Positions 29,966 through 56,575 of a stretch of DNA of 64,000 nt are shown here, piece after piece. This DNA comes from Dictyostelium discoideum. Its lineage: Eukaryota. Position numbers and translations under genes: made by a program. Each line of letters opens with the position of its first letter. The stretch's first letter is position 1. The notes below the pieces were generated by a model. It did not search any database and had not been told where the DNA came from. It was given only the letters and a program-made list of their open reading frames with translations. The stretch spans positions 2,528,001 through 2,592,000 of the forward strand of contig CM000154.2 in assembly GCA_000004695.1 (NCBI GenBank), in the 5' to 3' direction.

Positions 29966-32413
<2,448 letters not shown>

Positions 32414-32496
32414 GTTACTCTTATTAATGCTACCTCTTCTTCTTCCATCGCTACTAATGATATTATTAATATTATTACTATTATTACTATTATTAC

Positions 32497-32584
<88 letters not shown>

Positions 32585-32769
32585 GATGTTGCCGCTGATA
32601 TTATTGTTGTTATTTATATTATTACTATTAGCAATATTATTGTTGTGGCCGTTTTCTAGTCTATGTAAATTTTGTCCATTGTTGATATTATTGAAACCAT
32701 TATTATTATTGTTATTAATAATATTATTATTACCATTATTATTATTACTATTATTGATATTGTTATTAA

Positions 32770-32875
<106 letters not shown>

Positions 32876-33083
32876 AATATTACCATTATTACCATTATTA
32901 TTATTATTATTATAAAATTTTTAGTCAAAGAAATGAAAAAAGGGTAAGGGTAAATTAAAGGGGTTTGGGGGGGGATTTTTTAAATATCCCCGAAAAAAAG
33001 GGGGGTTTTAAAATTTTTTTTTTTTTTTTATTTATTTAAAGATTTTTAATTTTTAATTTTTGAAAATTAAAATTTTAATTTTT

Positions 33084-33173
<90 letters not shown>

Positions 33174-33207
33174 AGTTTTAAAGATTTAATTAAAAGCAAA
33201 GTTTGTA

Positions 33208-34026
<819 letters not shown>

Positions 34027-36980: not shown

Positions 36981-38834
36981 TTACATTTTTGGTTTTGATT
37001 GTAACTTGTTTGAAATTGGTAAAGAAGTTTTTAATTCTTCATAGACTCTAACACCAGTTTCAAGAGCTCCATTTATAGTTGAGAGATCGTATGTTGTAGC
37101 TGTTGCTTCACCTGCAAAGAATAATTTATTATCAATAGGCTATTTTTGTAAAAATGAGATTTTTTTTTTTTTTTTTTAAAAAAATATAAAAAAAAAAAAA
37201 AAGGGTGATATTACAATTAATATTTTATATCAATTGATTCATAATATATATTTTATATTAACAAAAAAAGGATTATTTTGTTTTTTTTTTTTTTTTTTGT
37301 ACAAGTTGTGGTTTTTTGGATTTTTAAATTTAGATCACAAAAAAAAAAAAAAAAAAAAATAAGAGATATTTTTTGATTTTTAGATTAAAAATTATTTTAA
37401 TCAATATTAGAGATTAATAATTTATGAATATTATAATTATTATTATTATTTAAAAAATAATAAAAAGAAGATTTTGGTTAGTATTTTTTTTTTTTTTTTT
37501 TAAATCTTAAGATATATTTAATTTTTTTTAAAAAAAATAAAAATAAAAATAAAAAAAAAATATATATTATTAAGAAAATAAAAAAATTTTAAATTTACCT
37601 CTGCTAAAATTTCATTTGGATAATTTTTATATGGATAAGTTGAAGGAATAATTGATGGATAAGAATAGGCACCACGTACGAATGGATTCTTTTGCCAATC
37701 ATAAACCATATGTGAGATAAAAGAGTCAGAGGCAGGTGTCCAACCATTTTCAGAAGTACCAAACATAGCATCTAATTGATCGAGGAAAGTACGAATTTGT
37801 TTTTGTGGTGATAGAGCACTGATGGCTTTAGCTTGGTCACCAGTGATGAAGCCAACTGAAACATATTCAGAAGGTTGTCCAGGAACGAGTGGACGATATG
37901 GTGGACCGTCCATCCAAATTTGAGGTACTGGACTATCACCACAAAGAACCAATTGACAATTATTTAACCAAAACTTTTTATTGAATTTAGCGATGATTTT
38001 CATACCACCGTCCATACCGATGGTTTTAATTGCGATTTTCTTTCTCTCTGGTAATTCTGGGGTGAAGGTGATATCACCATCTTTTAAGATTTGTAGTGGC
38101 ACAGTTACGACCACACGTTGGGCTTGAACCACTTGACCGTTGTAGGAGGTGACTTTAACCAATTTCTCGTCCTTTGTGGTATCGATATGTTTAACTCTCC
38201 AATTGAGGTTAATATCCAATGATTTTGAAAAATGATCCAACATAATCTTTGAAGATTGTTGAACTTTGTAATTGTTTGGAATTGTGTTTGGTTTACTATC
38301 TTCTCTTGCTGCTTCTTTAACACCAATTCTATCGAGATCAGTTGCCCATGTCTTTGAGTAGATTGCATCGGCCAAACCCAACACTCTGAATGGTACTTGC
38401 TTTTTAATTAAATGCTCTAAAAGATTCATTTCTCTATTTGGATTATCAATTTCATCAGATAAACTAACCAATGCATCTGCCAACTTTTGAATATCTTCAT
38501 CACGTTGATCTGCTCTAATTAATTTTCTTTCACGTCCTAAATATAAATAAGTGGAATTAATTGGTGAATTAAATAAATCCATTGAGAATACTTCAAATAG
38601 TTCCCATTTATTCTCCATTGCTAAACGATAATATAATGTATCACCACCATGAATCATTTCACCACCCAATTCAACTGGATAACTTGTAAAATTAAAATCT
38701 TGTCTAGTTCTACCACCAATAATATTATTTGCTTCAACAACTAAAACTTTATATCCATCCTTTTCTAATTTATAACCACACATTAAACCTGAAACACCTG
38801 ATCCAATTACAACAATATCATAAACATTACTCAT
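36981..38834 (-). CDS. Flavin-containing amine oxidase (polyamine/spermine oxidase-like)
   Basis: complement(join(36981..37139, 37611..38834)). It has the N-terminal FAD Rossmann motif DIVVIGSGVSGL…VLVVEANNIIGGR. The 3' exon was found only after splicing; it encodes PIDNKLFFAGEATATTYDLSTINGALETGVR, the family's C-terminal FAD-contact motif. The intron is 471 nt, long for this genome. Confidence 0.8.
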
Positions 38835-39702
38835 TTTTCTTTTGAGAAAACAAAAAAAATAAAAAAAAAAAAAAGTAAAAAAAAAGTCAAGATTTAAATT
38901 TTAAAAATAAAATAAAATAAAAATAAAAATAAAAAAAAAAAATATAAATAGATTAATTTCAATTTATTAATTTAATTATAAAAATAAATGAAAAAATAAT
39001 AATAAAAATAATTATAAAATATTTTAGGGTGAAGTATGAAATTTTCTTATTTTACCTTTTTTTTTATTTTTTTTTATTATTCTTCAAAGTGAAGATATGA
39101 ATAAACAGTGTTGTAAACGAAAATAAAAATAAAAATAAAAAATATAAAAAAATTATAAAAAAAAAAAAAAAATCAAAAAAAAAAACGAAATCAAAATTAA
39201 TTTTTTTTTTTTTTTTATTATTTTATTTTTATTAAGTAGAATTGGTTTAAATTTACAAAAATAGAAAACAATCATTATCAAATCTGTCATTGCTTTTATT
39301 TAATTTTTTTTTTTTCTTGAAAATATATTTTTTTTTTTTTTTTTTGTTTCTCATTAAAACAAAATATAATTATTATTTTTATTTTTTAATTTTTTTTTTA
39401 TTAATATTTCATTACTGTTTCTCATTAAAACAAAATATAATTATTATTTTTATTTTCTAATTTTTTTCATCTTTTTGTTTTTTTCTTTATTATAATTTTT
39501 TTTTTTTTTTTTTTTTATTAATATGTGGATTTTTTTCCTATAATTAGATTATCTCACAACTATATATTTTCATAATTTCATTTTGTGGTGGTGTGGTGAG
39601 AGTGTTTCAAAAAAAAAAAAAAAAATCATACAATATTGTAATTTTATGGGAAGGTGAGAAAAACAGTGAGTATAGGTGTATACTAGTATTTGTACACAAT
39701 AA

Positions 39703-39739
<37 letters not shown>

Positions 39740-39961
39740 GTTGTGTTTCTTTTTCAATTTATTCAAATTATATTATTATTATTATTATTTTTTTTTTTAA
39801 AAAAATAAAGTTAAATCTTCATATAATAGGGTGTGAGATCATATAAAAAAACCAAATGATGAATTATGTTGTTATATCGTTTAACAATTATTATGTACTT
39901 ATAAGGTTAAAAATTACTTTATCAAATTTGAAATAATAATAATAAAAAAATGAATAAAAAA

Positions 39962-39994
<33 letters not shown>

Positions 39995-40087
39995 AAATAA
40001 AAATAAAAATAAAAAATTACAAATTAAAAATAAATAATAAATAAATAAAATAATTATAGTTCATAATTTGGTAATAGCGTTTTTTTT

Positions 40088-40123
<36 letters not shown>

Positions 40124-40585
40124 TTTATTCCATTTTATTTTATTTCATTTTATTTTTTCTTTTTTTTTTTATTTTTATTATTTTTTTTTATTTCTTTTTT
40201 TTATTTTATTTTTCCTATTTTATTATATTTATTTTTTTTCTACTGTATATGTCCATCTACTTACTTTGTACAAATTTGAACACTCACACTATTTTACTTT
40301 TAATAAAAAAAAATAAAAAAAAAAAAAAAATTATTTTTTTATTGGCTCCATATCATAAATAAAAATAGTGTTTAAAAATCGCTTTTATATCAATATTAAA
40401 AATTTAGATTATATTGTACATTAAATTTGATTATTATTATAATAAAAAAATTAAATAAAATAAATAAATAAAAAATAAATAAAAAAAAAATAACTAATTT
40501 GTTGTTATTTTTGAGGTTAATTAAAAAAATACAAATAAAATAAAATAAATAAAATAAAATAAATAAAAAATAAAATAAAATAAAA

Positions 40586-40624
<39 letters not shown>

Positions 40625-40807
40625 TAAATACTCCAACTACCAAATCTAATTCAATCAATTATTTATAGAGTACATTATAAAATTACAAATTGTAAAAAAT
40701 AATAATAATAATAAATAAAATTTAAAAAATAAAATAAATTTAGTAATAATAAAATTAATAATAATAATAAATTAAATAAAAATAGTAATATTACAAACTA
40801 ATTAAAA

Positions 40808-40854
40808 ATGACATTATTTGGTAAGTCATTGTTATTATTTATAAAAATACAGTC

Positions 40855-40896
<42 letters not shown>

Positions 40897-41158
40897 GTGG
40901 AATCTTTAAAATCAAATTTCCTAATTTTTTTTTTTTTTTTTTTTTATCATAGAATCTTTAAAATCAATAAGCCCAGTTTCTAAAATTAATAACGATGGTG
41001 GAGTAATAGCGAATAATAAAATAACAGATCAATCAAATTATGGTATTAATGGTTTATCCGGATATGATGTACATAGAATTCCCGGTTATTCACCCCAAGA
41101 TTATTTCGAAACTACTGGATTTGGAAAAGAAGGTTATGTTGGTCCAAAATCATGTTAA
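40808..41158 (+). CDS. Small (about 72 aa) Gly/Ser/Asn-containing protein; 2 exons
   Basis: join(40808..40820, 40953..41158). Exon 1 (atg aca tta ttt g) ends at GTAAGT. The 3' splice region is duplicated (…tatag|tggaatctttaaaatcaa… and …atcatag|aatctttaaaatcaa…), and only the second acceptor gives an open frame (MTLFESLKSISPVSKINNDGGVIANNK…GFGKEGYVGPKSC). Confidence 0.45.
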
Positions 41159-41963
41159 CACTAGTAGTCTTTTTTTTTATGTTTTTTTTCCCCCATTTTT
41201 TTTAAATCTTTAATTAACTATTATTATTATTTTTTAAATTTCTTTTTTTAGTTAGAAAATAAAAAAAATAAAAAAAAAAAAAAAAAAAATAAAAAAAAAA
41301 AAAAATTAAAAAAATTAAAAAAAATATAAAGGTATTGTTTTCAATATTAAAATATTTAGTTTAAAATTTAACACCCTATAAAATATTTTTGGTTTAAATT
41401 TTTTTATTTTTTTTTTTTATTTAATTTAAAATTATTAATTAATTGTGTTATTATTTCATCATTGTTCGAAATTTCTACCAGTTAGAAATTCTAACCCTTC
41501 TTTTTCTATTAATGTTTTTAAAATTTTATTTTTTTTTATTTTTATTTTTTTTTTCATTTTTTATTTTATTTTAATTTTGTTTTAAATAATGTGGCACAAC
41601 TATGTTTCCCACACTGAAATTTAAAAACTAATCCAAATGAAACAAAGGTGACTAACTGCTAAAAAAAAATGAAATTTAGATATTTTTGAAAAAAAAAAAA
41701 AAAAATAGTTTTTTTAATTTTTTTGATAATTTTTTCCCATTACCTTGTCAGATATTTTTTTATTTTTTTTTTTATTTTAATTTTTTTTTTATTTTTATTT
41801 TTATTTTTTTTTTTTTATAATAATTCATCCTAATTTTTTTTTAAAAAAAAAGCAATAGAGAAAAAAAAAAAAACTTTTTTTTCATAAATCTTTAAAATAA
41901 ATTAATTGTATTATAAATTATCATTGTAAAAAAATAAAAAAAAATAATAAAATAAATTAAATA

Positions 41964-42047
41964 ATGGAACCAAGAACTTGTAGAATTTCAGTAGCAATTA
42001 GCTCACTCCTTGTATTTGTATGTTTTATTTTTATAAATATTTCTTTC

Positions 42048-42079
<32 letters not shown>

Positions 42080-42826
42080 TAAAAAATAATAAAATAAAAT
42101 AAAATAAAATAAAATAAAACAAAATAAAATAAAAAAAGGGAAATTTTTTTTTTTTTTTTTTAATAATAAAAATAATTAATAATAAAATTCTAATAATATC
42201 TATTTTTATATTTTTTTGATCGCTTTGGAAAAAAAAATCAAAAAAAAAAAAAAAAAAAAAATCAAAATTTATAACTATTATTTATTATTTTTATTATTTT
42301 AGTTATTCGGTGTTACACAAGTTGTAATTACATTTTCAAATCAAAATATTGATACAAGTCATACATGGGCATTCTTTGCCAATGGTTGTACATGCACATT
42401 AACAGGTTTTGCAGGTATTTTAACAGCAATCTTTTCAAAGACAACATTCTCAAAAATCTACTTCCTTATGACATTTTTAACAGTTTTTGAAGCTATCATT
42501 GTCTATATCATTTTCAGTGCCGCCTTACCAAGTTACATTGAAGCAGCATGTGGTGGTACAACATTCTTTAATCACTATTGCCAAGGTATTAAAATTTATC
42601 TTTCATCTGCTACAAGTGTTTTCTGGTCTTGGATCCTTTTAATTCTTGTAAGTAAATCTAAAATTAAAATCTAAAATCTAAAATCAAACAATTTATTAAT
42701 ATTTTTTATTTTTTATTTTTTTTCTCTTTTTCTCTTTTATAGCCAGCTTCATCATTCATTGCATGGAAAAATCTTACAGTTTCAAGATCTACTCCAGGTA
42801 ATATTGAAATGAACAGCAAAAACTAA
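41964..42826 (+). CDS. Small four-transmembrane-helix membrane protein (about 160 aa)
   Basis: join(41964..42017, 42303..42647, 42743..42826); introns GTATGT...TAG and GTAAGT...TAG, phases 0/0. Four hydrophobic helices are predicted. No enzymatic motif was recognised. Confidence 0.6.
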
Positions 42827-43167
42827 ATTTAAAATTTAAAATTGTCTTATCCAAAAAAAAGCGAAATAAAATAACACAAATAATAATAAATTAAAAAAAA
42901 AAAAAAAAAAACAAAAAAAATAATATTAAAAAAAAAGAACAAATAATAATAATAATAATAACAATATTAATAATAAAATAAATAAATTCTGTACTGTAAA
43001 TTTAATAAACTATAAATAAAACTATTTTTGTTTAAAAAACCCGCCTTTTTTTTTTTTTTTTTTTAAATTTTTTTATTTTTATTTTTATTTTTTTTTTATT
43101 TTTTAATAAATTAATCATAAATATATATATATATATATACACAACATACCAAATACATAAAGATAAG

Positions 43168-43946
43168 ATGTTTACAAAAACAGCAATTGAATTAATTAAA
43201 GAATTAAGAGGAACAGATTCAATACCTCATTATAATGTATTTATCAAAATATTTAAATCCATATATTATATTCTGAATAATATTATTATTATGGTACTAA
43301 CCAAACACCTCACCTTCATATAATAATAAGGATACATCAATTAAGGCGACCATCGATGAAATGATAGCATTATATGAAGATTTGATTAAAACTATTACGT
43401 ATGTTATTTTCTTTTTTTTTTTTTTTTTATATTTTATTATCCCATTTCCTAACATTTTCTTTTTTTTCATCATTTAAATAATAATGATAATAACAATATT
43501 AATAAAGTGAACATAAAGAACAAAAAAAAGAACCATTTTATTTACAACATGCAATTACATTTCATAATAGTATTAATAGAGATAAAAGATGTATTTTAGC
43601 TTATTTAAATGAAAGATTGAATAGAATTAAAGAGTACAGGTGGAGTTCAGGTCAAAGTTTATTACCAGATCAATTAAAAGAGAGATTATCACAAAATGAA
43701 ATTCAATTCTTTTCAGAATATGATAAAATTTTAACAGAATACAATTCAAAGGTTGGTTTAGATTTAACAATTGATCCACAACCACCTAAAGAATTATATA
43801 TTGAAGTTAGAGTAATTAAAGAACTTGGTGAAGTAGTTTTAAACTCTGGATGTACTGTAAATTTAAATTTAAATACAACTCATTTTTTAAAAAGATCTGA
43901 TATTACAAATCTTGTAAAAAATGGTTCACTTGAACATATAATTTAA
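43168..43946 (+). CDS. gins1: GINS complex subunit Psf1 (replicative CMG helicase component)
   Basis: join(43168..43236, 43331..43398, 43508..43946), phases 0/2 closing (191 aa). It aligns with metazoan PSF1 along its whole length: MFTKTAIELIKEL…IPHYN / IDEMIALYE / RDKRCILAYLNERLNRIKEYRW / PPKELYIEVRVIKELGEV / SLEHII. Confidence 0.85.
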
Positions 43947-44027
43947 ACAAATAAATAATACACACACACACAAATATTATTATTTTTGTTTTTATTTTTT
44001 TTTACTTTTATTTTTATTTTTTTATTT

Positions 44028-47000
44028 TTATTTTCTTGAATCGTTATCATTTGTTATTACCAGTTTTAAAATAGATTTGAATTTTTTTATATCATTACTA
44101 GAGTAGATAGTATCTTGATTACCAATTGATGAAGGAGGTAATTGAAGTATACCAGTTAATAATCTTTTACAATGATGGCAATATTCTTTTTTCGAAAGTT
44201 GTAGTTGTTGTTGTTGATGAGGATTAAGATGAAGATTTGGATTATCACTTGAATTCTTTTTAAAGATTAAACAAGAACAAGTGAGTTTTTCATCAATGAT
44301 CATGGTTATAGTTGAATTATCAGATTTTACAAATAATTTAATACCATCATTTTTATAATTTTGAACTGCGATTAGAGTGTTTTCATTCTTGCTATAATTA
44401 TCGACCCTTGTTAAAGATTTACCATTAACTGTAGAGATTGGATAAGGAGATGAAGGATCTTGTAATTCATATTGATCTTCACCCTCTGTTATATATTCGT
44501 CACTAAAACTTGGACTATAGAAATCTTTTTCCATGATATCTAAAAATGTTTTTAATTTCGATTCGAAAAAGTCTTTTTCTAAATGACCATTTGTTAAGGG
44601 ACAAACTTTTTTTAAACTTTGACAAAATTCATTTCTAATCGTTAAGAAACCATTAACAACCACCAATGGTAATATTAAAGTTGAAAAATCTGGGAAATCG
44701 TGCTTTAATTTTTCAACTAAATCTCTATATCTATCGATTGAATCATTTTCAACTTTTTTAACTTCATTTTCACTGTATACACCATCTCTTGATGGATCAA
44801 TAACTGAAATATCAATAATTGCAATCATTTTACCATTTTCTTTTTCAAATAAATTTGGTGTTAATTGTGGTATATTATTATTATTATGATATTGTTGAGG
44901 TATATGTTGTTGTTGTTGTTGTTGATGCTGTTGCTGTTGTTGTTGTGGTGGTACTAAAAATAATAAGAAATCAGGTGTTACTCTCCATTCTAAAGTTGGT
45001 GTATAAAATAATTTTTCATATTTTTCAGTGATTGGATTTATAAGTTTATATTCAATAGGTTCATATTTTGATTTAACCTCTTGAGTGAAATCATGTGGGA
45101 ATTGAGTTGCATTTGTAATTTCAATTGAATGTAATAATTTGAATCTTGGTGAACTATATTCTAAATGAAATTTCTCTTTAAATTTAGAATCCAACCAAAT
45201 TAATATCTCCCTTGCAATGAATTTACTAATTTGATTATGAATTGATAATCTTGATGTGAATTTATAGATATCTTTCATACTGACAGTTCTAGCGATTTCT
45301 TTAGTATGAAGTGTGGTCTCCTCTTTAGTATGAAGGAAAACCAATTCTACAATTTCCAAATCCATAGTTTGAATAGCTTTTGCTAGACTATTGGTTGGCA
45401 TTGGTTCGAATCTATTTTTACATAACCATTGAATAGCTTTTAAACTCCTACTTTCAATTGCATTAATTAGGGAGAAACTTGCAACACCATAGAAATTTTG
45501 ATGAATCATTTCCATGATCTCAATGTTTGCATGTTTTGCTGCCCAATCCATTGATTCGGTGAATACTCTATGTTTAACTTTGAAATAGGGAGGATTTCTC
45601 TTTGTGATTAATCCTTCCAATAAATGTTTGAAAGTTCTACTTTGATTACCTTTTGCAGCATATTCAAAACATTTAATTGTAACATCAAATAGTTTAAGTT
45701 GATCATCATCCGCTAATATCTCTTGAATCTTTAAATTTAAATTTGGTGATGATGATTGACACATTGCATCGAAAACCGATGAAAGGTTAACACCTCTAAC
45801 ACGTAGATGCTCCAATACCATTAAATTACCTTTACTTGCAATTTCACATAATAACTCTTTAGTTAATTCATATGGTTGTTTAACTCTATCCTCTAAAAAG
45901 AAAACACAATCCATATGACCATTTAATAATGCACCATTCATTGCTTTTGTCGTACAAATTTGATAATCTTTAAATTTTTTATCTGTTAAATCTAATAAAT
46001 GTAATTTTTTTTGATTATTATTATTATTATTATTATTATTATTTGATGTTGTTGTTGTTGTAGTTGTTGTAGTAGTTGTTGTAGTTGTAGTTGTAGTTTG
46101 ATTTGTTGATTTTTTCTTTTTCTTTGATTTTGATTTTGATTTTAAAGTTGGAATGTCCTCAATTGAGAATCTTTTTGGTTGTATATTATCATTGTAGTGA
46201 ATGATTTTAACTAAGAAAAAGAAAAGAAAAGATAAGATTTTAATAAAACCAAATGTTGAAGCTAAATCTAAAGCTTGTGGAGATATTGGTTTATTTTTAT
46301 GTGCTAAATAAACTACAACATCGTAATGACCATTCTTTGAGGCATTGATTATTGCATTTTCAGTGCAACCCTCATTTCTGTTGTTCATTAAGAATTTGAC
46401 GATATTGAGATGACCTTTTTCGGCTGCTTTATCCATCGCATTCGTTGTTACTAACCAATTACCCCAACTTAATGAATTCTCCCATGAATGTAGAGTTTTT
46501 AAAATTTTATAATAACCACCTTCACAAATTGCATCGATTATATCAATTGTGTTAAGGAAAACATTTTGACATGAATCCAATAGGAAATCCAATAATTTTT
46601 CATTACCTGCTGATCTTGCTATTGTACATAGTACATATCCATTCACTGTGTTTAAAATTTGTGAAAATTGAATTAAATCGAATTTCAACGAGAATTCAAA
46701 TTTGTCTAAAAGTAATGAAAAATATCGATTTCTAACCATCCAAACGCTGTTGGTAATATCGTCATAATAAAGTGTACGAAACATTCTTTTATCTCTTATA
46801 AAACCAATTATATGTTCTCTTAAAACTTTACTATTCCAAACTTTACGAAATAAAAAATCGCAATCCCTATTTTCTTTTACCTTTAAAACCATATTGTTTT
46901 TTATTCCATCTTTATTTTCACTTTTTATTGACCCTTTATTTTCATTTTCATTTTTAATTTCTTTAATTTTTTCTTTTTTTTTTTCTTTTCTATTTTTTTT

Positions 47001-47321
47001 TTTTTTTTTTTTTTTAAAAAAATTTAATGTTATTTACATTAATTATTAAATTAATAAAATTTCTTTCTTTTTTTCTGTTTTTTTTTTGTTTTTAAAAAAG
47101 TGAAGAAAGAAAGAAATAAAGAAGAAAAAAACAAAAAAAAAAAAGAAAATAAAAATAAAAAATTTAACTTACTCTTCTTGTTCTATATCTAATTCTTCAT
47201 TATGGTTAAGATCTTTTAAAACGTATAAAGAGCATGTATAATTACTTTGTTTAATTTTATATTCTTCAACACTATAGCTATCAAAAAAGATGACTATAGT
47301 TTTTGAAAATTGTGTTTCCAT
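44028..47321 (-). CDS. Ankyrin-repeat protein of unknown function (about 1036 aa)
   Basis: complement(join(44028..46989, 47173..47321)). The 5' exon (METQFSKTIVIFFDSYSVEEYKIK…) ends at GTAAGT. The acceptor aaaaaaaatag at 46990/1 restores the frame (phase 2). Ankyrin-like repeats are present (AAEKGHLNIVKFLM…ASKNGHYDVVVYLA…). The central and C-terminal regions have no recognised domain. Confidence 0.7.
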
Positions 47322-47984
47322 TTTTTAATGGTTAATAAAAAAAAAAAAAATTTCATAAAAAAAAAAAATTTTGAAATTTTGAGCTTTTAAAAAAAATAAA
47401 TGAAATAAAATCAAAAAAGGTTTAATAAAATAAAAAAAACGTATTAAAATAAAAAAATTTTATTTTATTTTATTTTATTTTTATTTTTTTTTTTTTTTTT
47501 AATAATAAGAAATAATTTTTCAAATGATAAAACTAATAAGTTTTTAAAAAAAAAAAAAATCAAATTTTTTTTTAATTTTTTTTTTTTTTTAATTTAATTT
47601 CAGTTTTCACTATTATCCAAAATTTAATATATTAAAATCCGTTTGGCGTTTCATGAAACACATTGTTGTGTTTTTTTAGGAAATTTTTTTTAAAAAAATA
47701 AAAATTTTATGTGAAAATTTGTGGGAAAATGATTTAAAATTCAATATCATGCACCAATAAATAATTATCATTTGGAATCAAAGGAGGTTATCTTAATCTA
47801 CTTAATGGACCATCTGGTTGTTGGCATGAATTTGAGTTAATATTAAATGAAATATTCGTTATATTAAATATTTTTTAATTTTACTGTAAATGTTAAAAAA
47901 AATAAAAAAATTTTTTTTTTTTGACTTGTAAAATATAATTTAAATAATTTTTTTAATTATCATTATCATAAAAATAAAACAAAT

Positions 47985-48150
47985 TCACATTTTTTTTTAG
48001 ATATTTATCATTGAATTACCAATAGCATTATAATAACATATGTTTTTAATATGGATATCGAAATTAAAATTATTTATTTATTTTGAAAAAAAAAAAATAA
48101 AAAAAAAACAGAATAATTAAAAAAAAAAATAATTAAAAAAAAATTTTATG
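47985..48150 (+). repeat. Dispersed intergenic repeat, copy A
   Basis: …ttcacatttttttttagatatttatCATTGAATTACCAATAGCATTataataacatatGTTTTTAATATGGATAtcgaaattaaaaTTATTTATTT…AAACAGAATAA… shares about 85% identity over about 150 bp with copy B at 54063..54235, in the same orientation. Confidence 0.7.
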
Positions 48151-48361
48151 GCATTGTAAAAACCATTGGACATACCAAAGAGCTAAAAAAAGGAAAAAAA
48201 AAAATAAAATAAAAGTTTAATCCTCAACTTGGACTAAATCAAATTTGTCAAATCGATTTTGGAAAGACCCCCTGTCTGAAATAATTAATATTTTAAAAAA
48301 AAAAAATTTCTTTATTATTTATAAAAAAAAGAATTCTTTTTAAATATTGTTTTGATCAAAT

Positions 48362-49437
48362 TTAAACTTCAGAAGAATTTGAAACACTTATATTATTGGA
48401 ATCAGATATTTGAACATCGATTGTATTTGAATAATGAGTTGAAATATGAGTAACAGATAAAGCCAATTCATTGGCACCATTTGAACTACCACTAGAACCT
48501 TTACTACTATCTGAGCCTACCATTGACTCTGGATAACCTAATAATAATCTAATCTTTCTACAGGTTTCAGATCTACCAAAAATAATTAATGCAGCATAAC
48601 AATTGATTAATTCAAGAGCAAAGAAACCAATATTAATCCAATCTTCAGCATCTGAATCTCTTCCAATGGTAACATAAACAATATTGATAACCCAAAGTAC
48701 AATACCAAGAAAAGATGTAACACCAATGAGACCTTTAACTTTTGAAACAAGCATTTCATCATGTTGAGTCCTATTCTTATTGTGGTAAACTTGTTTTAAA
48801 ATTTTAAAACCAAAGAAACCAAGTGATCCAGTAATTAATGCGGCTGAACAAATGAAATATAATCTCCAAGTTGTATCGATAACTTTACTATAACTACCAT
48901 CAACCAATACTATAACTCCGATTGTAGTATAAAACACCAATGACATAATAACATTACCAATTATAATTCTATCAACAGTTGCAACTCTCTCAAAATGTAC
49001 ACGTTTATCCATATATACAACTGCTAATTTCATTAAAAGTAATACAATAAAAAAGAATTCCATTGCAAAAAATTGTACACTCCATCCATAAATAATACAT
49101 ACAATTTTATTAAGATGTGGTGCTTTAGTATTAAATATCCATGCTAATATACCTGTTGCAATTCTAACTAAAAATAATATTAAAGTTAATTTAATAATAA
49201 AATAAAAAAAAATAAAAAAAAAAATCAATTGTATTACTTACATAAAATTGCTATCATCATACTAAAAAATACCAGAAATGGAATTGATTTTAAGTACATC
49301 CTTTTTAATTTTTGATTCAATTTTTTAGATTTTTGAACTTCAATATAAATATGATATAAAACTATAAATAAAAGTGGGACATACCACATACCTTCTAAAA
49401 AATATATCCACGCCCCTCTTATTTTTTCTTGTACCAT
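48362..49437 (-). CDS. Seven-transmembrane-helix membrane protein (about 333 aa), family unassigned
   Basis: complement(join(48362..49167, 49242..49437)); the GTAAGT...TAG intron has consistent phase 1. About 7 hydrophobic helices are followed by a Ser/Gly-rich C-terminal tail. Confidence 0.65.
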
Positions 49438-49493
49438 TTTATTATTATTTTTATTATATTTTTATTAATATTTTTTTTTAATTATTAATGTTA

Positions 49494-49526
<33 letters not shown>

Positions 49527-50277
49527 TTTTATTTTATTTATTTTTTTTAATAATTATTTTTATTCTATTTGTTATTTTTTTTTTATTTTTTATTTTTTCT
49601 ATTATGATTAATTAAATTTATTTAAAAATAAAAAAAAAAAAATCAACTGACCATGTTTTTTTTTTTTTTTTTAACAGTTTTTAGGATAATATTTTATTTT
49701 AATTATTTTTATTTTTTATTTTATTTTTTTTACAACCTTTATTTTTATAAGGTGGAAACTAAGATATTTTTTTTTGGTTGGAGTAAAAAACCATTGCAGA
49801 AAAATATCTTTAAACTAAAAATAAAAAAATATGAAAAACATGAAAAATAGGACACGGATGCTTTTTTATTTTTTTTTTAATTTTTTTTTTTTAAGATATT
49901 TCCCGCATTATTTGAAATTCTTTTTTTTTTTTTTTTCATAATCAAAAAAGAAAAAAAAAAAAAAAAAAAAAGATATTTTAAAAAAAAAAAAAAAAAAAAC
50001 AAAGGAACTAATCAAAAACAAACATTAAAAAAAACAAATTTATAATTTTCACCATTGTTAATGGCAGGGGGGGCCTTTTTTTTTTTTTTTTTTTTTTTTT
50101 GGAAAAAAAATTGGCGGAAAAAAAAATTTTTTTTTTTTTTTTTTTAACCCTAAAAAAAATAAATTTTTTTTTTTTTTTTGCGCGAAAAAAAATTTTTTTA
50201 AAAACAAAAACCCCTTTAAATCCCAAGCCTTTTCTTTGGCAAAAGGTTTTTTTTTTTAAATTTTTTTAAATTTTTTT

Positions 50278-50377
50278 NNNNNNNNNNNNNNNNNNNNNNN
50301 NNNNNNNNNNNNNNNNNNNNNNNNNNNNNNNNNNNNNNNNNNNNNNNNNNNNNNNNNNNNNNNNNNNNNNNNNNNNN
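50278..50377. other. Assembly gap (100 N)
   Basis: 100 N. The 5' flank 50040..50277 is low-quality-like sequence (G/C homopolymers, ggcggaaaaaaaa, gcgcgaaaaaaaa). Confidence 0.95.
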
Positions 50378-50512
50378 CAAAGAAATAAACGAGAATTTAT
50401 ACATATAATAAATAAATCACTGTTATATCTTCACCGCCACATTCATTCCTCTTAATTTTACCCTTTTTTTGCTCAATAAAGCAAGGGCTATCGTCCTATA
50501 TACTTTTCAACA

Positions 50513-51446
50513 ATGGCTGATGATCACTCAACTGAATTACAGTTAAATCATACAGATAACAACACAACCAATACAAATAATACCTCCACAACCTCAACAA
50601 CAAAAAACAAAAGTGCAAAAATCGACACACCTAAAAAACAAACCCCAACAAACCAACTCTCACTAAACAAAGGACTTGATAATCAATTAGATATCATTGC
50701 ACCTCCATCAATCACAAGACCACTCTCTTTCTTAGAAAAAAACAATAACACCATCAACATTAAGTGTTACTTTAACCAACCACACATCCGTGAAGAATTA
50801 ACCTCAAAAGATGACACAAGAATTCAACAAATTCACAAAAACATTCACAAACTCTTCGAAGATATACTGTCGCAATCAGCATTCAAAATAATTGGTGCAA
50901 CTGCCTTCGTAAATTGCAACGTCGATAAATTAACTTCAATAATCAACCTTCAAAACCAACTTGCACTAAATATCGACAAACTCAACTATAGATTCGATAT
51001 ATCATCAAATGATTATGCAATCATTAAAACATTCATTAAAACGTACTCACCCAAACATGCAAACGATGCAATTACAAACAACCTCACTAAATTCACCAGT
51101 TGTACATCAATTGAATCATTTACTGTCACATACTCATATGCTGTTGCGTTTAAAAGCTACATTATAACATATCATCTAATTGATCACACACACAACATTG
51201 TTGATCAAAAGATCGAACAACCATCTGGTATCACAAGATATATCAAAGCTGCAACACGTAGTGTCACTAAACACAAAATTCAACATGCAAAAAATGCAGA
51301 TATGGCAACAACTATAAAAAATGCCATCACGAACCCAAACATGAACAAAAACAATCAACCACCAAAAAACAACATTAACACCCCACCAATCAACGAAATT
51401 GCAAATTCCAATCGCAATAATAACTCACTTCAAAATAGTGGTTCAA
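50513..51446 (+). CDS. ORF with atypical C-ending codon usage, truncated by a gap; candidate transposable-element ORF or highly codon-biased gene
   Basis: ATG at 50513. The frame stays open for 311 codons until the N-run at 51447. Codon choice (ACC, ATC, AAC, CAC, CTC, TTC, GAC) and local GC content differ sharply from every other gene in the window. The protein (…KCYFNQPHIREELTSKDDTRIQQIHKNIHKLFEDILSQ…) has no motif I recognise. Confidence 0.5.
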
Positions 51447-51546
51447 NNNNNNNNNNNNNNNNNNNNNNNNNNNNNNNNNNNNNNNNNNNNNNNNNNNNNN
51501 NNNNNNNNNNNNNNNNNNNNNNNNNNNNNNNNNNNNNNNNNNNNNN
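51447..51546. other. Assembly gap (100 N)
   Basis: 100 N separating the plus-strand atypical ORF from the 3' end of a minus-strand secreted-protein gene. Confidence 0.95.
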
Positions 51547-53619
51547 TCTATTTTACCACCACCATTAATCTCTACATTCAAATCGATTTTGTCTGATGGT
51601 GGTGGAAAACTCATTGATGATCCAGTTAGTTGATAATGTTGTTGAATTTTACTTATTCTTTCCATATCATCACTATTTTCTTTAATTACCAACCTTGAAA
51701 TAAAATCATTAATACCTTCTTTAACTTTTGAGTTATAAAATGTCCTTTCTCCACTTGAACTTATATAGTAATACGAATAAACTTTTTTTGAAAAAAATTT
51801 ACTAAGAGTTGGGCTTTTGAAACAATGTACTGATCCTCCTCTATGAGCCTATTTTTGAGTGTTATGAAAAATCAATTTTATTAAAACTAGATTTTAGAAA
51901 TCCATAATTTAAATATAAATTTTTACTTACCTGTTTTTCCATAAAATTATTATCACCAACACAAAACCATTTATAATCATATTGATTAGGTTGGGTTGGT
52001 ACAACTTCATCAGGAAAATCTCGTTTAAATTGAATAACTGAAAAAGCTTGTTTTGAATGATCCTTTTTTCTTGTAATAATTTTATTATTAGGAGCATAAC
52101 CAGTTATATCTTCAACTTGATATACATTACGTTCAAGATTTGAAACTTTTCCTGTTTCAATGTCATTATAATGTTGAGTTTGTAAATAAAAGTTTCCTAA
52201 TAGTGAAATTTGTTGACCACCAAAATCCATCTTTAAGGTTGAAATGTATGTCCAAATGTTTATTAAATTTTTATAACTCAATTTACTGGGATCCATATAT
52301 CTTCTTACACCATAAATATAGTTTTTCCCTAATTGGTTATCTTTGTTATAAAATTGTTTTTGATAAAAATATAATTTTTCTGAATATTGGTTATAAAGTG
52401 TTTCTAAATGTTGCTTTTTACTGTATTCCGAAAAATAATATGCCTGGTTTAAAAAGTTAATTTTTTTTTTTTTTTAATAAATAAGGTAATTTAAAGATTT
52501 TGATTAGATTAATGAAAATACACATACATGCTTTGCCAAAACATACAATGGGAATTTATCATTTTGGTCCAATATTTTAACATCATTAACAATTCCGGCT
52601 GTTACTTGAGATTCTCGAATATTAATATTTTCGTAATGAATATTTCTCTTTTGAAAATCATTTGTATCAGGTATTCTCATAAAGCTAACTCTTGGAAATT
52701 TGGCAGGATCTAAATCATCTAATATATTTGTTAACTCTAATGATGAGAGTCCCCAATTGACTGCCAAACCATTAACGTAACCAATAACTGAATTTGTTAA
52801 TACCAAATGTCTATAGATACCAACTTCAATCCCTGTTTTTGAAATCGGATAGCAATATGCATACTGTGCTTGTTGTAATTTTGGGTTCTTATCTTTTGGT
52901 ATTAAATTCAAAAATTAATATTAATAATAAAGGAATGAAATTGGTTAAATGTATGAAATAATGAACCATTACCTCTTAAATTTTTATCTTTATGATTAAA
53001 AACTTCTAAACCAGGATTAAATCCACCTGTTTGTGGCTTTTTTGCAAATTTTCCTTTCTCCATAGTTTCATCATTTCTACTTGTTCTAAACAAAGGAAAT
53101 GCTGTAAAACTATGCATCACATGTATACCACCATCTTTGTTCCTACAAGTTCACAATGTGTTTAAAATAATAAATCAATTTTTAAATTAAGAAATTAATT
53201 TTCCTTTTTTTTTTTTTTTTTTTAAAAAATTTAAATAAAATTAAAAATTAAAATATTTACCAAATAAAAAATCCTTTTGAATGTCCACCTACTGGATCTT
53301 TATCTCTTGTTTCATCAGGATGATCATTGTAGGTAACATAATTATAATCTGGGTTTTCCATTTGGTTGAATGTTAATAAAAACGCTGATTCACTATCATA
53401 TCTTAATGAATATTCAATTCCTATTTTTTCAGTTATGGTATCAGAGAAACTATTCCAATAATAAATTCCACCTTCTTCAGGTAACTGGTAAATGTACCAT
53501 TTTCTTATTATATTGTTCAATCCAATATCTTTTCCTCCTTGTAAACACATGGGCTGACAATAAAATAATTGAATATTAAATATAATTAAAATTAAAAAAA
53601 TTAAAATAATCTTTTTCAT
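51547..53619 (-). CDS. Secreted multi-exon protein (signal peptide), family unassigned; 3' end lost in the gap
   Basis: ATG at 53619 with a signal peptide MKKIILIFLILIIFNIQLFYCQ. At least 5 exons are joined by GTAAAT/GTAATG/GTATGT...AG introns. The partial model already exceeds 550 aa. Exon blocks sit at ~53259..53619, ~52936..53137, ~52515..52903, ~51860..52440 and ~51547..51845. I found no catalytic motif I could assign with confidence. Confidence 0.5.
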
Positions 53620-54062
53620 TTTATTTGTTGTAATTATTTTTTTTATTCTTTTTAAATAAATTAAATTATTTTAAAAATTAAAATATTTATTTTATTCAAT
53701 TTTATTTTTCTATTACAAGATTCTGATAAAACATGAGCAATAATTTAGGCGAGTATTTTTAACTTTTTTTTATTAAACTAATAAATCATTTATATAAATT
53801 ATTGTGTTAATGTTCAACATATGGTGCACCATTATTGTTTTTCTTTTTGAATAATGTTTCAAAACTAGACATTATTGTCGTTTTTTTTTATTCGAATCCA
53901 ATAGATGATATCATTATTATTAATATTTAATATTTGAAAATAGAAAAAAAAATGTTAGAAGAAAAAAATAATTTATTTAAATAATAAATAAAATTAAATG
54001 ACTTATTCCTTTTTTTTTATCATTTTCATAAAGTAAAAAAAGGAAAAAAAATATACACATAT

Positions 54063-54235
54063 TTCACATTTTTTTTAAATGTGTAGCATTGAATTACCAA
54101 TAGCATTTATATTTACATTTGTTTTTAATATGGATATTGAAATAAAAATTATTTATTTGAATTAGAAAAAAAAAAAAAAAAAAAAAAACAGAATAAAAAA
54201 AAAAATAAAAAATAAAAAAAAATTATATTTTTTAT
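54063..54235 (+). repeat. Dispersed intergenic repeat, copy B
   Basis: See copy A. The identical cores cattgaattaccaatagcatt and gtttttaatatggata are followed by A-rich sequence containing aacagaataa. Both copies lie 200-270 bp 3' of a minus-strand gene stop (48362 and 54433). Confidence 0.7.
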
Positions 54236-54432
54236 TAATAATTGGTAAAGATCCAAATCTATATCTCCAAATAATTAATATCCAAAAAAAAACTATTGAT
54301 TATGATCTAGATCTGGTAAATAATTAATTAATATCATAAATAAAAGAAAAAAATAATAATAATATTTAAACTTTGGTTAATGATTTTATGTTTGAAATTC
54401 TTTTAAGAATTATAAAAATATTTATTTTAAAG

Positions 54433-55696
54433 TTAAGAATTTTTATAATCAATTAAAGAATTTTTTGAGAAACCATTATTTGAAACAGTTAATTTTAATA
54501 ATTTAAATTGTTTGATATGTTGATTTTTTGAAATGAAAGAATTGAATTTAAATTTATAATCATCCACACTACCAGATATTTGATCAACCATTGATTCGAA
54601 ATAGATTATATTTTTTAAGTTTTCCATTATATTAAAGAGAATGATAGAGTTATCGCCACCATGTATCGAAAACTTTTTTAAAGGTGATATCCAAGACAAG
54701 AAGCAAGTGAAATTATTTATAAATGATTTTTTGAATTTTTCTGAACTCCAAAGTAATGAAGCACCATAGGTAGTACAAGAATTACCAATAAACAAAGATT
54801 CCAATGTTAAATTTTTATTTTTGTTTGTTACCATCTCCTTTAATTCTAACCAATCATTATTGAATGAATCTTGGTCTTTGAAAGTGTCATTAATTGAAGA
54901 ATAGCTTGTCAAACAATTACATATACAATCTGAACGTTTATCTTGTGTATCAGATAAACAATACACTAATTTTCTTAAACAAATACCAACAAAAAGATGA
55001 TGTAAATCTTTAAAGACCAATGGAGATAATAAAAATGTTAAATCTTTTAAAGAGATTGCTGAATCATAAATTTCTAAATATTTGACATTTGAAATCATAG
55101 AAGCATTTTTTGAAAAAATTTCAGTTATTCTTAATGTTTGTGAAACAAATAATTGATTTAATGAATGATTCCAATATCTAAATGCTTCATTTATAACTGG
55201 TTCCTGTAATTCTGTACAAAAATGAATATAGAGTGAAAATAATTTGGTCACTCTTTTCTTTAACTTTTCTAAATCCTTCAAATTACTTGATTGATTAATT
55301 TCCAATTCCAATAATTGTATATTACTTTTAACGATTTCGTTCTCTTTAAATTTAAATATAATTAATTTATCAATATTATCATTAAAATTAACAATATTAA
55401 TATTTCTAATTAAAACTCTTTTAAATGGTATATTAATAATTAATTGATTTTCATTTTGTTGTTTTTTTTTTTGTTGTTGTTGTTGTTGTTGTAATTGTTT
55501 TTGATATTCTATTAAATTTTCAAATCTATTATCGATTTCATTAATTGTAATTTCTTTCTCTCCTTCTGGTGCTCTTATTGAACCACCACCACCTGGTCCA
55601 ATAATTTTATAAAAGTATGGTTTCTTGTAATCATGATGTAATTTAATGGTTTTAATATTCTCTCTTTTAATTATTGAATATTTTTCATTATTAATT

Positions 55697-55772
<76 letters not shown>

Positions 55773-56022
55773 ATGATATACTTGTTGATGATTGATCTTT
55801 ATAATTAAAATCAACTGATACTGTTAAATTATTTGATAATGTTTTAAACCAATCTTTACAAACCAATGCCAATGATAACATTAACTTTTTATTAATAGAT
55901 TCATTCTTTCTATACTCTGAATCAAGATCTGTTATAATTTCCAATGTCTTATTTTGTCTATCAATATGTTTACACAGTAATTTAATTATAAATTTTTGAA
56001 TATATAATGGTATTATGGTCAT
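54433..56022 (-). CDS. Hypothetical 529-aa protein with a poly-Asn and poly-Gln insert
   Basis: Single ATG-initiated ORF with non-repetitive flanks and internal N20 and Q8 runs. No recognisable domain. Confidence 0.55.
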
Positions 56023-56109
56023 TATAAATTAATTATATATGATTTAAAAAAAAAAATAATAATAATAATAAAAAAAAAAAAAAAAGGGGTTTGGGGGGAA
56101 AAAAATAAA

Positions 56110-56152
<43 letters not shown>

Positions 56153-56282
56153 GTATATAGTAATTTTGTTTTTTCACGAATAATTAAAAAATTAAGAAAA
56201 AAAAAAATAAAAAAAAATTAAAAAAATAAAAAAAATAAATAATATAATAAATAAATTAATTTTTATTTTAAATAATTGTTGT

Positions 56283-56323
<41 letters not shown>

Positions 56324-56535
56324 TGGGCAATTACTTTATAATAACCATAACTAACTATCCAATACTTATATGGTATCCATCTAGATGATTCATTACCAAA
56401 TTGATTTTTATTATTTATATTGTTGTAATTGCTTGTTGGTAGAATTTCATTATTATTTGTACCTATTCTATTTTTATTAATTGAGGTTAATGATTCTATT
56501 TTAAAAAAAATAAAAAAATGTTAATTAAATATTTC

Positions 56536-56575
<40 letters not shown>

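Follow-up and report, generated by a model that had tools for sequence, protein, structure and literature searches.

A gap-bounded block on a Dictyostelium discoideum contig is, with high confidence, the 5′ end of a TRE3 retrotransposon copy

The locus and its composition

The DNA analysed here, referred to as the window, is a stretch of 64,000 nucleotides of Dictyostelium discoideum (contig CM000154.2 of assembly GCA_000004695.1, positions 2,528,001 to 2,592,000, forward strand). It is AT-rich and dictyostelid-like, with ~22% GC, and holds four runs of exactly 100 N. Two of these runs, at 50278-50377 (gap 1) and 51447-51546 (gap 2), enclose a block of 1,069 bases (50378-51446), in which an ATG at 50513 opens an open reading frame (ORF) that runs for 311 codons without a stop up to the gap at 51446. 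A first-pass annotation, made from the letters alone, had placed both 100-N gaps at exactly these coordinates and had read the block as a transposable element or, failing that, as a highly expressed and codon-biased host gene. We conclude that the block almost certainly belongs to a single copy of a TRE3 ('tRNA-gene-targeted retroelement, 3′ side') retrotransposon of the non-long-terminal-repeat (non-LTR) class and represents its 5′ fifth, with most of the 5′ untranslated region (UTR) and, of the first ORF, 311 codons out of 402. The window thus contains element positions 27-1095 out of 5,318 bp, or 20% of the element, in two features:

50378..50512, plus strand: 5′ UTR of the TRE3 element, 135 nt, element positions 27-161
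50513..51446, plus strand: ORF1 ('gag'), first 311 of 402 codons, element positions 162-1095, ended by gap 2

That the composition of the block is unlike that of other genes in the window, as the first-pass annotation had noticed, was borne out by measurement. Its C content of 0.240 is the extreme of the window, ~3.6 standard deviations out, and exceeds that of all 584 other segments of 1,069 bp taken on either strand (mean 0.127, standard deviation 0.031, maximum 0.218). The ORF of the block has a base content of A 0.44, C 0.24, G 0.09 and T 0.23, with a GC skew of -0.46; its overall C compares with 0.08-0.18 in 18 other measured ORFs, and its third-position C (C3) is 0.27 versus 0.03-0.17 in the same ORFs. 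The peculiarity had been ascribed to the third codon position, which proved too narrow: C is high at all three codon positions of the full ORF1 (0.19/0.30/0.25 for positions 1/2/3), and the excess of C, with depletion of G, extends to ORF2 and the UTRs of the full element. Elevated GC, which had been offered as a sign of a transposon, is not what sets the block apart, as its total GC of 0.33 falls within the range of host exons (0.22-0.37). The seemingly aberrant codon usage is thus due to an A+C-rich, G-poor bias of the sense strand that runs through the whole element, not to codon optimisation.

Protein identity and copy number

The earlier description of a product of at least 311 residues with no recognisable domain was accurate. 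A Pfam scan of the block ORF found no domain above threshold, and for ORF1 at E up to 1 the scan gave only a below-threshold match to SusF_N. The block ORF is identical in 310 of 311 residues to a D. discoideum protein of 402 aa deposited in GenBank as 'gag' (AAD43056.1 / Q9Y1H6), the sole difference being P121Q. Near-identical or degraded copies are found among the AX4 gene models (DDB_G0293270, DDB_G0271954, DDB_G0268942, DDB_G0293734, DDB_G0272400, DDB_G0268596, DDB_G0290713 and DDB_G0281357). The AX4 models of ORF1 are spread over contigs of five different lengths (3.60, 8.48, 4.92, 5.13 and 6.36 Mb), which we take to be five chromosomes. ORF1 was also matched in a newer D. discoideum assembly, and six copies of the element were counted in four long-read loci. 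In the short-read contigs that contain the exact gag protein (L001-L004), the gag ORF runs on into a second ORF through an ATGA overlap, and this second ORF carries the Exo_endo_phos and RVT_1 domains.

Beyond the element's own copies, no relatives of the ORF1 protein (ORF1p) were found among 1.84 billion representative proteins; one weak match (E 1e-5), made up of six short stretches, probably reflects low-complexity sequence. This result agrees with the published statement that the ORF1 proteins of TRE elements resemble nothing else, nor one another (PMC5006619). There were no diverse homologues from which to build an alignment, and the single-sequence AlphaFold2 model of ORF1p, with a mean predicted local distance difference test score of 36.5, was unusable.

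A complete element at the orthologous locus

The orthologous region was identified on chromosome CM142511.1 of a long-read D. discoideum assembly, GCA_054883475.1 (sequences L008 and L009), the left flank being located through a 288-aa ORF and its cluster member DDB_G0289275. On the left, window 38334-50277 corresponds to L009 21076-9169 with 99.34% identity, and on the right, window 51547-64000 corresponds to L008 14475-2056 with 99.64% identity. The block itself (window 50378-51446) matches L009 8739-7671 in 1,069 of 1,069 bases, and its part of the 5′ UTR, besides being 100% identical to L009, is 99.6% identical to the Logan contig L003. Because both flanks and the block align in the long-read assembly, the element is truly at this place and in this orientation. 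The first-pass annotation had proposed looking across both gaps with long reads, and this view revealed a complete element of 5,318 bp (L009 8765-3448), organised as follows in element coordinates:

1-161: 5′ UTR
162-1370: ORF1, 402 aa
1367-5194: ORF2, 1,275 aa, -1 frame
after ORF2: 3′ UTR, 110 nt
at the end: oligo(A) tail, A14

ORF1 is 402 aa long in L001 as well as in L009. Its overlap with ORF2 is ATGA, and the frame is shifted by 2, which is equivalent to -1. Pfam places Exo_endo_phos at residues 8-231 and RVT_1 at residues 502-732 of the L009 ORF2, and the two domains were detected in both L001 and L009 (E 1e-12 and 3e-31, respectively). A C-terminal CCHC motif, CPICNNEMNNDPYGHLFFNC, follows at residues 1056-1075 in L009, so that the domain order is apurinic/apyrimidinic endonuclease (APE), reverse transcriptase (RT) and zinc finger. 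APE and RT were the only domains that Pfam returned for ORF2; protease, RNase H and integrase were not found. The 12-bp target-site duplication on either side of the L009 copy, TTCTTACTAACA, is perfect, and the copy has no terminal repeats, its end being the oligo(A) tail.

Association with tRNA genes and family assignment

In L009, 57-58 bp separate the element's first base from an upstream tRNA-Gly(GCC) gene in the same orientation (L009 8823/8824-8894, minus strand; detected by ARAGORN and by Rfam RF00005 with 63.6 bits). A copy of this tRNA's own B-box core, GTTCGATTC, is found 32 nt past the tRNA gene and 16 bp before the insertion. Other copies are placed in the same manner, ~66 bp downstream of tRNA-Thr in L005 and ~61 bp downstream of tRNA-Met in L006, where a second, 5′-truncated copy lies 86 bp downstream of tRNA-Phe; all of them have the orientation of the tRNA gene. 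The copies in L005, L006 and L007 share a common 5′ junction, '...AAAACAAAGAAATAAACGAG', behind unrelated upstream sequences; the copies include 5′-truncated ones and vary in their A-rich 5′ end. The L007 copy (L007 9853-16240) has a target-site duplication of 10-11 bp and a poly(A) tail. It adjoins a ketoacyl-synthase gene call and contains an insertion or rearrangement of ~1.1 kb at 11989-13128; a B-box-like sequence, ATCGATTC, occurs ~55 nt upstream of it.

TRE3-A has been described as having two ORFs, an ORF2 with the order APE-RT-zinc finger, a -1 frameshift and an oligo(A) tail; the hallmark of TRE3 elements is that they insert 40-150 bp downstream of a tRNA gene, sharing its orientation, behind an internal or external B box (PMC5911963, PMC5006619). 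The L009 locus and three further copies are positioned in just this way. The two ORFs with the APE-RT-zinc finger order are present in L009 (in the window, part of this layout falls in gap 2), ORF2 is in the -1 frame, and L009 and L007 combine target-site duplications and terminal A tracts with the lack of LTRs. The first choice of the first-pass annotation, a transposable element, was therefore the right one, since the element is a multi-copy non-LTR retrotransposon of the TRE3 type, and TRE3 was among the families it had listed; the block is neither single-copy nor free of similarity to repeats. The copies' abundance and the -1 overlap would both fit TRE3-A, which is the commonest member. 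A labelled TRE3-A, -B, -C or -D sequence, a length table or an identifier mapping was sought in the literature, including the supplements of PMC12405889, PMC5006619 and PMC4559204, and none was found there.

Positions 49000-52000 of the window were searched for a B-box motif, a tRNA and Rfam families, with a negative result; the tRNA-Gly gene sits wholly inside gap 1. A single tRNA gene could be detected in the window, that for tRNA-Leu(AAG) at 22132-22213 on the minus strand. Its flanks have no match on either side to the present TRE3 element, to which the comparison was confined. A second element near this tRNA-Leu gene was considered and rejected: the C-rich ORF at 23579-24514 is a host ORF of Thr/Ser/Asn low complexity with no similarity to the element.

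Assembly gaps and neighbouring genes

The features around the block are as follows:

50040..50277, no strand: low-quality read tail at the left contig end, badly called real intergenic DNA outside the element
50278..50377, plus strand: gap 1, 100 N, corresponding to 429 bp in the long-read assembly
51447..51546, no strand: gap 2, 100 N, corresponding to ~18.6 kb if the assemblies are collinear
51547..53619, minus strand: host gene of the DNase II family with a signal-peptide-like N-terminus, cut mid-exon by gap 2

The stretch at 50040-50277 had been called junk-like, and aptly so. Identity to L009 is 1.00 until about 50040 and drops to 0.76-0.79 thereafter, with adjacent bases smeared into runs; the mean homopolymer run is 3.66 here versus 2.1-2.5 in nearby intergenic DNA. 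Gap 1, which follows directly, contains in L009 the tRNA-Gly(GCC) gene (plus strand of the window), the B-box copy GTTCGATTC, the target site TTCTTACTAACA and the element's first 26 nt. The suggestion that the gaps and the junk-like stretch come from a repeat-induced assembly problem holds in so far as the element does break the assembly, but gap 1 is not purely repeat-induced, because there a read end of poor quality borders 429 bp of unique DNA with a tRNA-Gly gene.

Gap 2 hides the other 4,223 bp of the element, namely the end of ORF1, ORF2, the 3′ UTR and the A14 tail. Its estimated length is the sum of these 4,223 bp, 3,447 bp of L009, 3,822 bp between L009 and L008 (an unfetched interval, taken from the record coordinates) and 7,115 bp of L008. 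For the last of these, L008 14476-21590, the window contains no long counterpart. In the long-read assembly, at least seven genes are called in the stretch that gap 2 stands for (among them Arf, TPR, EGF/TIG and ComC_SSD), along with another tRNA-Gly(GCC) gene. The 90% cluster of one gene in it, ACTFIT_000976, is without an AX4 partner, which fits sequence missing from the older assembly. A unit of tRNA-Gly(GCC) and a gene of ~1 kb is duplicated in L009 (254-1269 versus 2290-3282, 91%; 1259-1408 versus 8768-8922, 87%), and the TRE3 copy is placed between the first tRNA-Gly and the paralogous gene of that tRNA. This local duplication could add to the difficulty of assembly.

To the right of gap 2, PF03265 matches the exon ORFs at 53257-53619 (E 2.1e-07) and 51862-52296 (E 4.6e-04) of the DNase II gene, whose signal-peptide-like start is MKKIILIFLILIIFNIQLFYCQ. 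The orthologous DNase_II gene call in the long-read assembly (L008 12403-15272) is 787 aa long, and the last ~800 bp of the gene lie inside gap 2. The Pfam domain has 326 positions, and the C-terminal part of the 787-aa gene call is without an annotated domain. A secreted-protein gene in the opposite orientation had been reported to abut the block. The gene is indeed on the minus strand, signal-peptide-like and cut by the gap, but its contact with the element is an artefact of the gap, because ~14.4 kb of gene-bearing DNA separates the two in the long-read assembly, if collinear. The gaps and the truncation belong to the assembly, not to the genome. A smaller possibility is that gap 2 represents a real deletion or rearrangement of ~14 kb beside the element in the strain of the window, rather than a mere sequencing gap.

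Elsewhere in the window, the other 100-N gaps are at 7720-7819 and 33279-33378, the latter probably caused by the long simple-repeat region that surrounds it (about 32100-33900). For a 954-aa ankyrin-like ORF at 44028-46892 (minus strand), a protein search with E up to 1e-50 gave no D. discoideum match, and at its orthologous place there is a gene call of 1,036 aa (L009 12117-15410); the missing match is probably an effect of the word index or of cluster representatives, not biology. Exact look-ups of the AX4 protein P0009 and of the window ORFs at 44028-46892 and 37518-38834 returned no record.

Discussion

In this study, we have assigned a block of DNA enclosed by two assembly gaps to the TRE3 family, and the assignment has to be weighed against other explanations. 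That the block belongs to a single-copy host gene of very high expression, in which C-ending codons reflect translational selection, would fit a C3 above that of every other ORF measured in the window and the absence of a Pfam domain. Yet C is raised at every codon position and in the UTRs while G is depleted; the sequence is multi-copy, on AX4 contigs of five different lengths, has no orthologues beyond the element copies among the representative proteins searched, and is directly followed by an ORF2 encoding APE and RT, in a full copy with a poly(A) tail and a target-site duplication. Copy number and the linked reverse-transcriptase ORF refute the codon-biased host gene, the second choice of the first-pass annotation, and we regard it as extremely improbable. 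It is also conceivable that the short contig of 1,069 bp, with a gap at each side, is a read or consensus of a repeat that was misplaced in the scaffold, so that the site would be empty in the genome. The contig begins no more than 26 nt from the element's 5′ end, and the window shows no junction between it and the flanks. However, an independent long-read assembly has the element there, in the same orientation and 100% identical over 1,069 bp, between the orthologue of DDB_G0289275, the gene of the left flank, and, further on, the same DNase II gene. Misplacement is thus very unlikely.

Assignment to other mobile elements of D. discoideum fares no better. An element of the TRE5 family (TRE5-A, -B or -C) would have the same general architecture, with two ORFs and an APE-RT-zinc finger ORF2 in the -1 frame, but TRE5 elements sit about 44-54 bp upstream of a tRNA gene and have the opposite orientation to it (PMC5911963). 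All four tRNA-associated copies found here are downstream of the tRNA gene and in the same orientation. Position and orientation argue strongly against TRE5, to which we would give very little credence. The name 'gag' in GenBank might suggest a tRNA-associated LTR retrotransposon, either Skipper-2, which inserts downstream of tRNA genes as the present element does (PMC5006619), or DGLT-A, which inserts upstream. What we observed instead is a variable A-rich 5′ start and an A14 end without LTRs, and an ORF2 with APE and RT but without protease, RNase H and integrase. An LTR element that does carry protease, RNase H and integrase is present in L006 (2617-6930), and it does not match the present element. 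The chance that the block is the gag of an LTR retrotransposon is vanishingly small.

Assignment to TRE3 is not without points that weigh against it. In the window, neither the tRNA gene nor the element's 3′ end, tail and target-site duplication can be seen, all of them lying inside gaps, and placement in TRE3 rests not on the window but on another assembly of D. discoideum. The name is given by behaviour and architecture and not by comparison with a labelled TRE3 consensus, so that the letter A-D is not established. The L007 copy has no tRNA gene within 10 kb, and its target might have been a solitary B box. Moreover, the steps by which TRE3 elements find their targets, that is, which protein meets which RNA polymerase III factor, are drawn by analogy with TRE5-A, in which ORF1p contacts TFIIIB (PMC5911963).

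With TRE3 as the preferred assignment, how the copy came to lie behind the tRNA-Gly gene may be pictured from L1-type elements and TREs. The bicistronic RNA of the element would be transcribed and translated into ORF1p and ORF2p, and the complex could be directed to the tRNA gene, at whose B box or external B box the RNA polymerase III transcription complex is bound. The endonuclease would then nick the DNA a few tens of bp downstream, and target-primed reverse transcription from the nick would leave the oligo(A) tail and the target-site duplication. A bolder proposal is that this copy is young, intact and still mobile, and that its orphan ORF1p could be what recognises the TFIIIC/B-box complex and fixes where, downstream of tRNA genes, the element inserts. 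In its favour, both ORFs are open and the 12-bp duplication is perfect in the long-read assembly, and the two assemblies, whose flanks differ by 0.4-0.7%, agree in every one of the first 1,069 bp. Taken as a whole, we consider this proposal doubtful. The role of ORF1p is a general question about TRE3 elements and not particular to the present locus.

Descriptions of TRE3 elements, their targeting of tRNA genes and the structure of their ORFs go back to 1999. The literature and GenBank already cover the element, its protein and its targeting, so that the copy is an ordinary one with nothing new about it; it behaves as expected for TRE3 and is of little biological importance. Of more practical use is the A+C-rich, G-poor strand bias as a signature of TRE elements in this AT-rich genome. 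The locus also illustrates how gaps of equal size can mask very unequal DNA, here, by comparison with the long-read assembly, 429 bp with a tRNA gene versus about 18.6 kb. Because runs of 100 N stand for such different amounts, neighbour relations across gaps are not to be trusted, and the base calls at 50040-50277 are unreliable and unfit for use.

Comparison with known systems

The present element shares with TRE3 (TRE3-A to TRE3-D) the two ORFs with ORF2 in the -1 frame, the order APE-RT-zinc finger, the short UTRs and the oligo(A) tail, and its ORF1 agrees in 310 of 311 residues with the deposited D. discoideum 'gag' AAD43056.1, which is unlabelled as to subfamily. No difference from TRE3 was found in this comparison of architecture and behaviour, which was made without a subfamily-labelled sequence.

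TRE5-A (formerly DRE) is the best-studied tRNA-targeted non-LTR retrotransposon of D. discoideum. It belongs to the same L1-like superfamily and shares the domain order of ORF2, the -1 frameshift, the orphan ORF1 and the targeting of genes transcribed by RNA polymerase III (PMC5911963). It differs in that its insertions lie about 50 bp upstream of tRNA genes and are oriented opposite to them, that its UTRs are modular (A/B/C), and that its ORF1p binds TFIIIB.

Mammalian LINE-1 has the same bicistronic non-LTR layout with an APE-type endonuclease and a reverse transcriptase, and likewise its sense strand is A-rich, its copies are frequently 5′-truncated, and it has a poly(A) tail and target-site duplications made by target-primed reverse transcription. 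Unlike the element described here, LINE-1 does not target tRNA genes, and its ORF1p, consisting of a coiled coil, an RNA recognition motif and a C-terminal domain, is not detectably related to the ORF1p of this element. The two ORFs of LINE-1 are separated by a spacer, whereas those of the present element overlap by ATGA.

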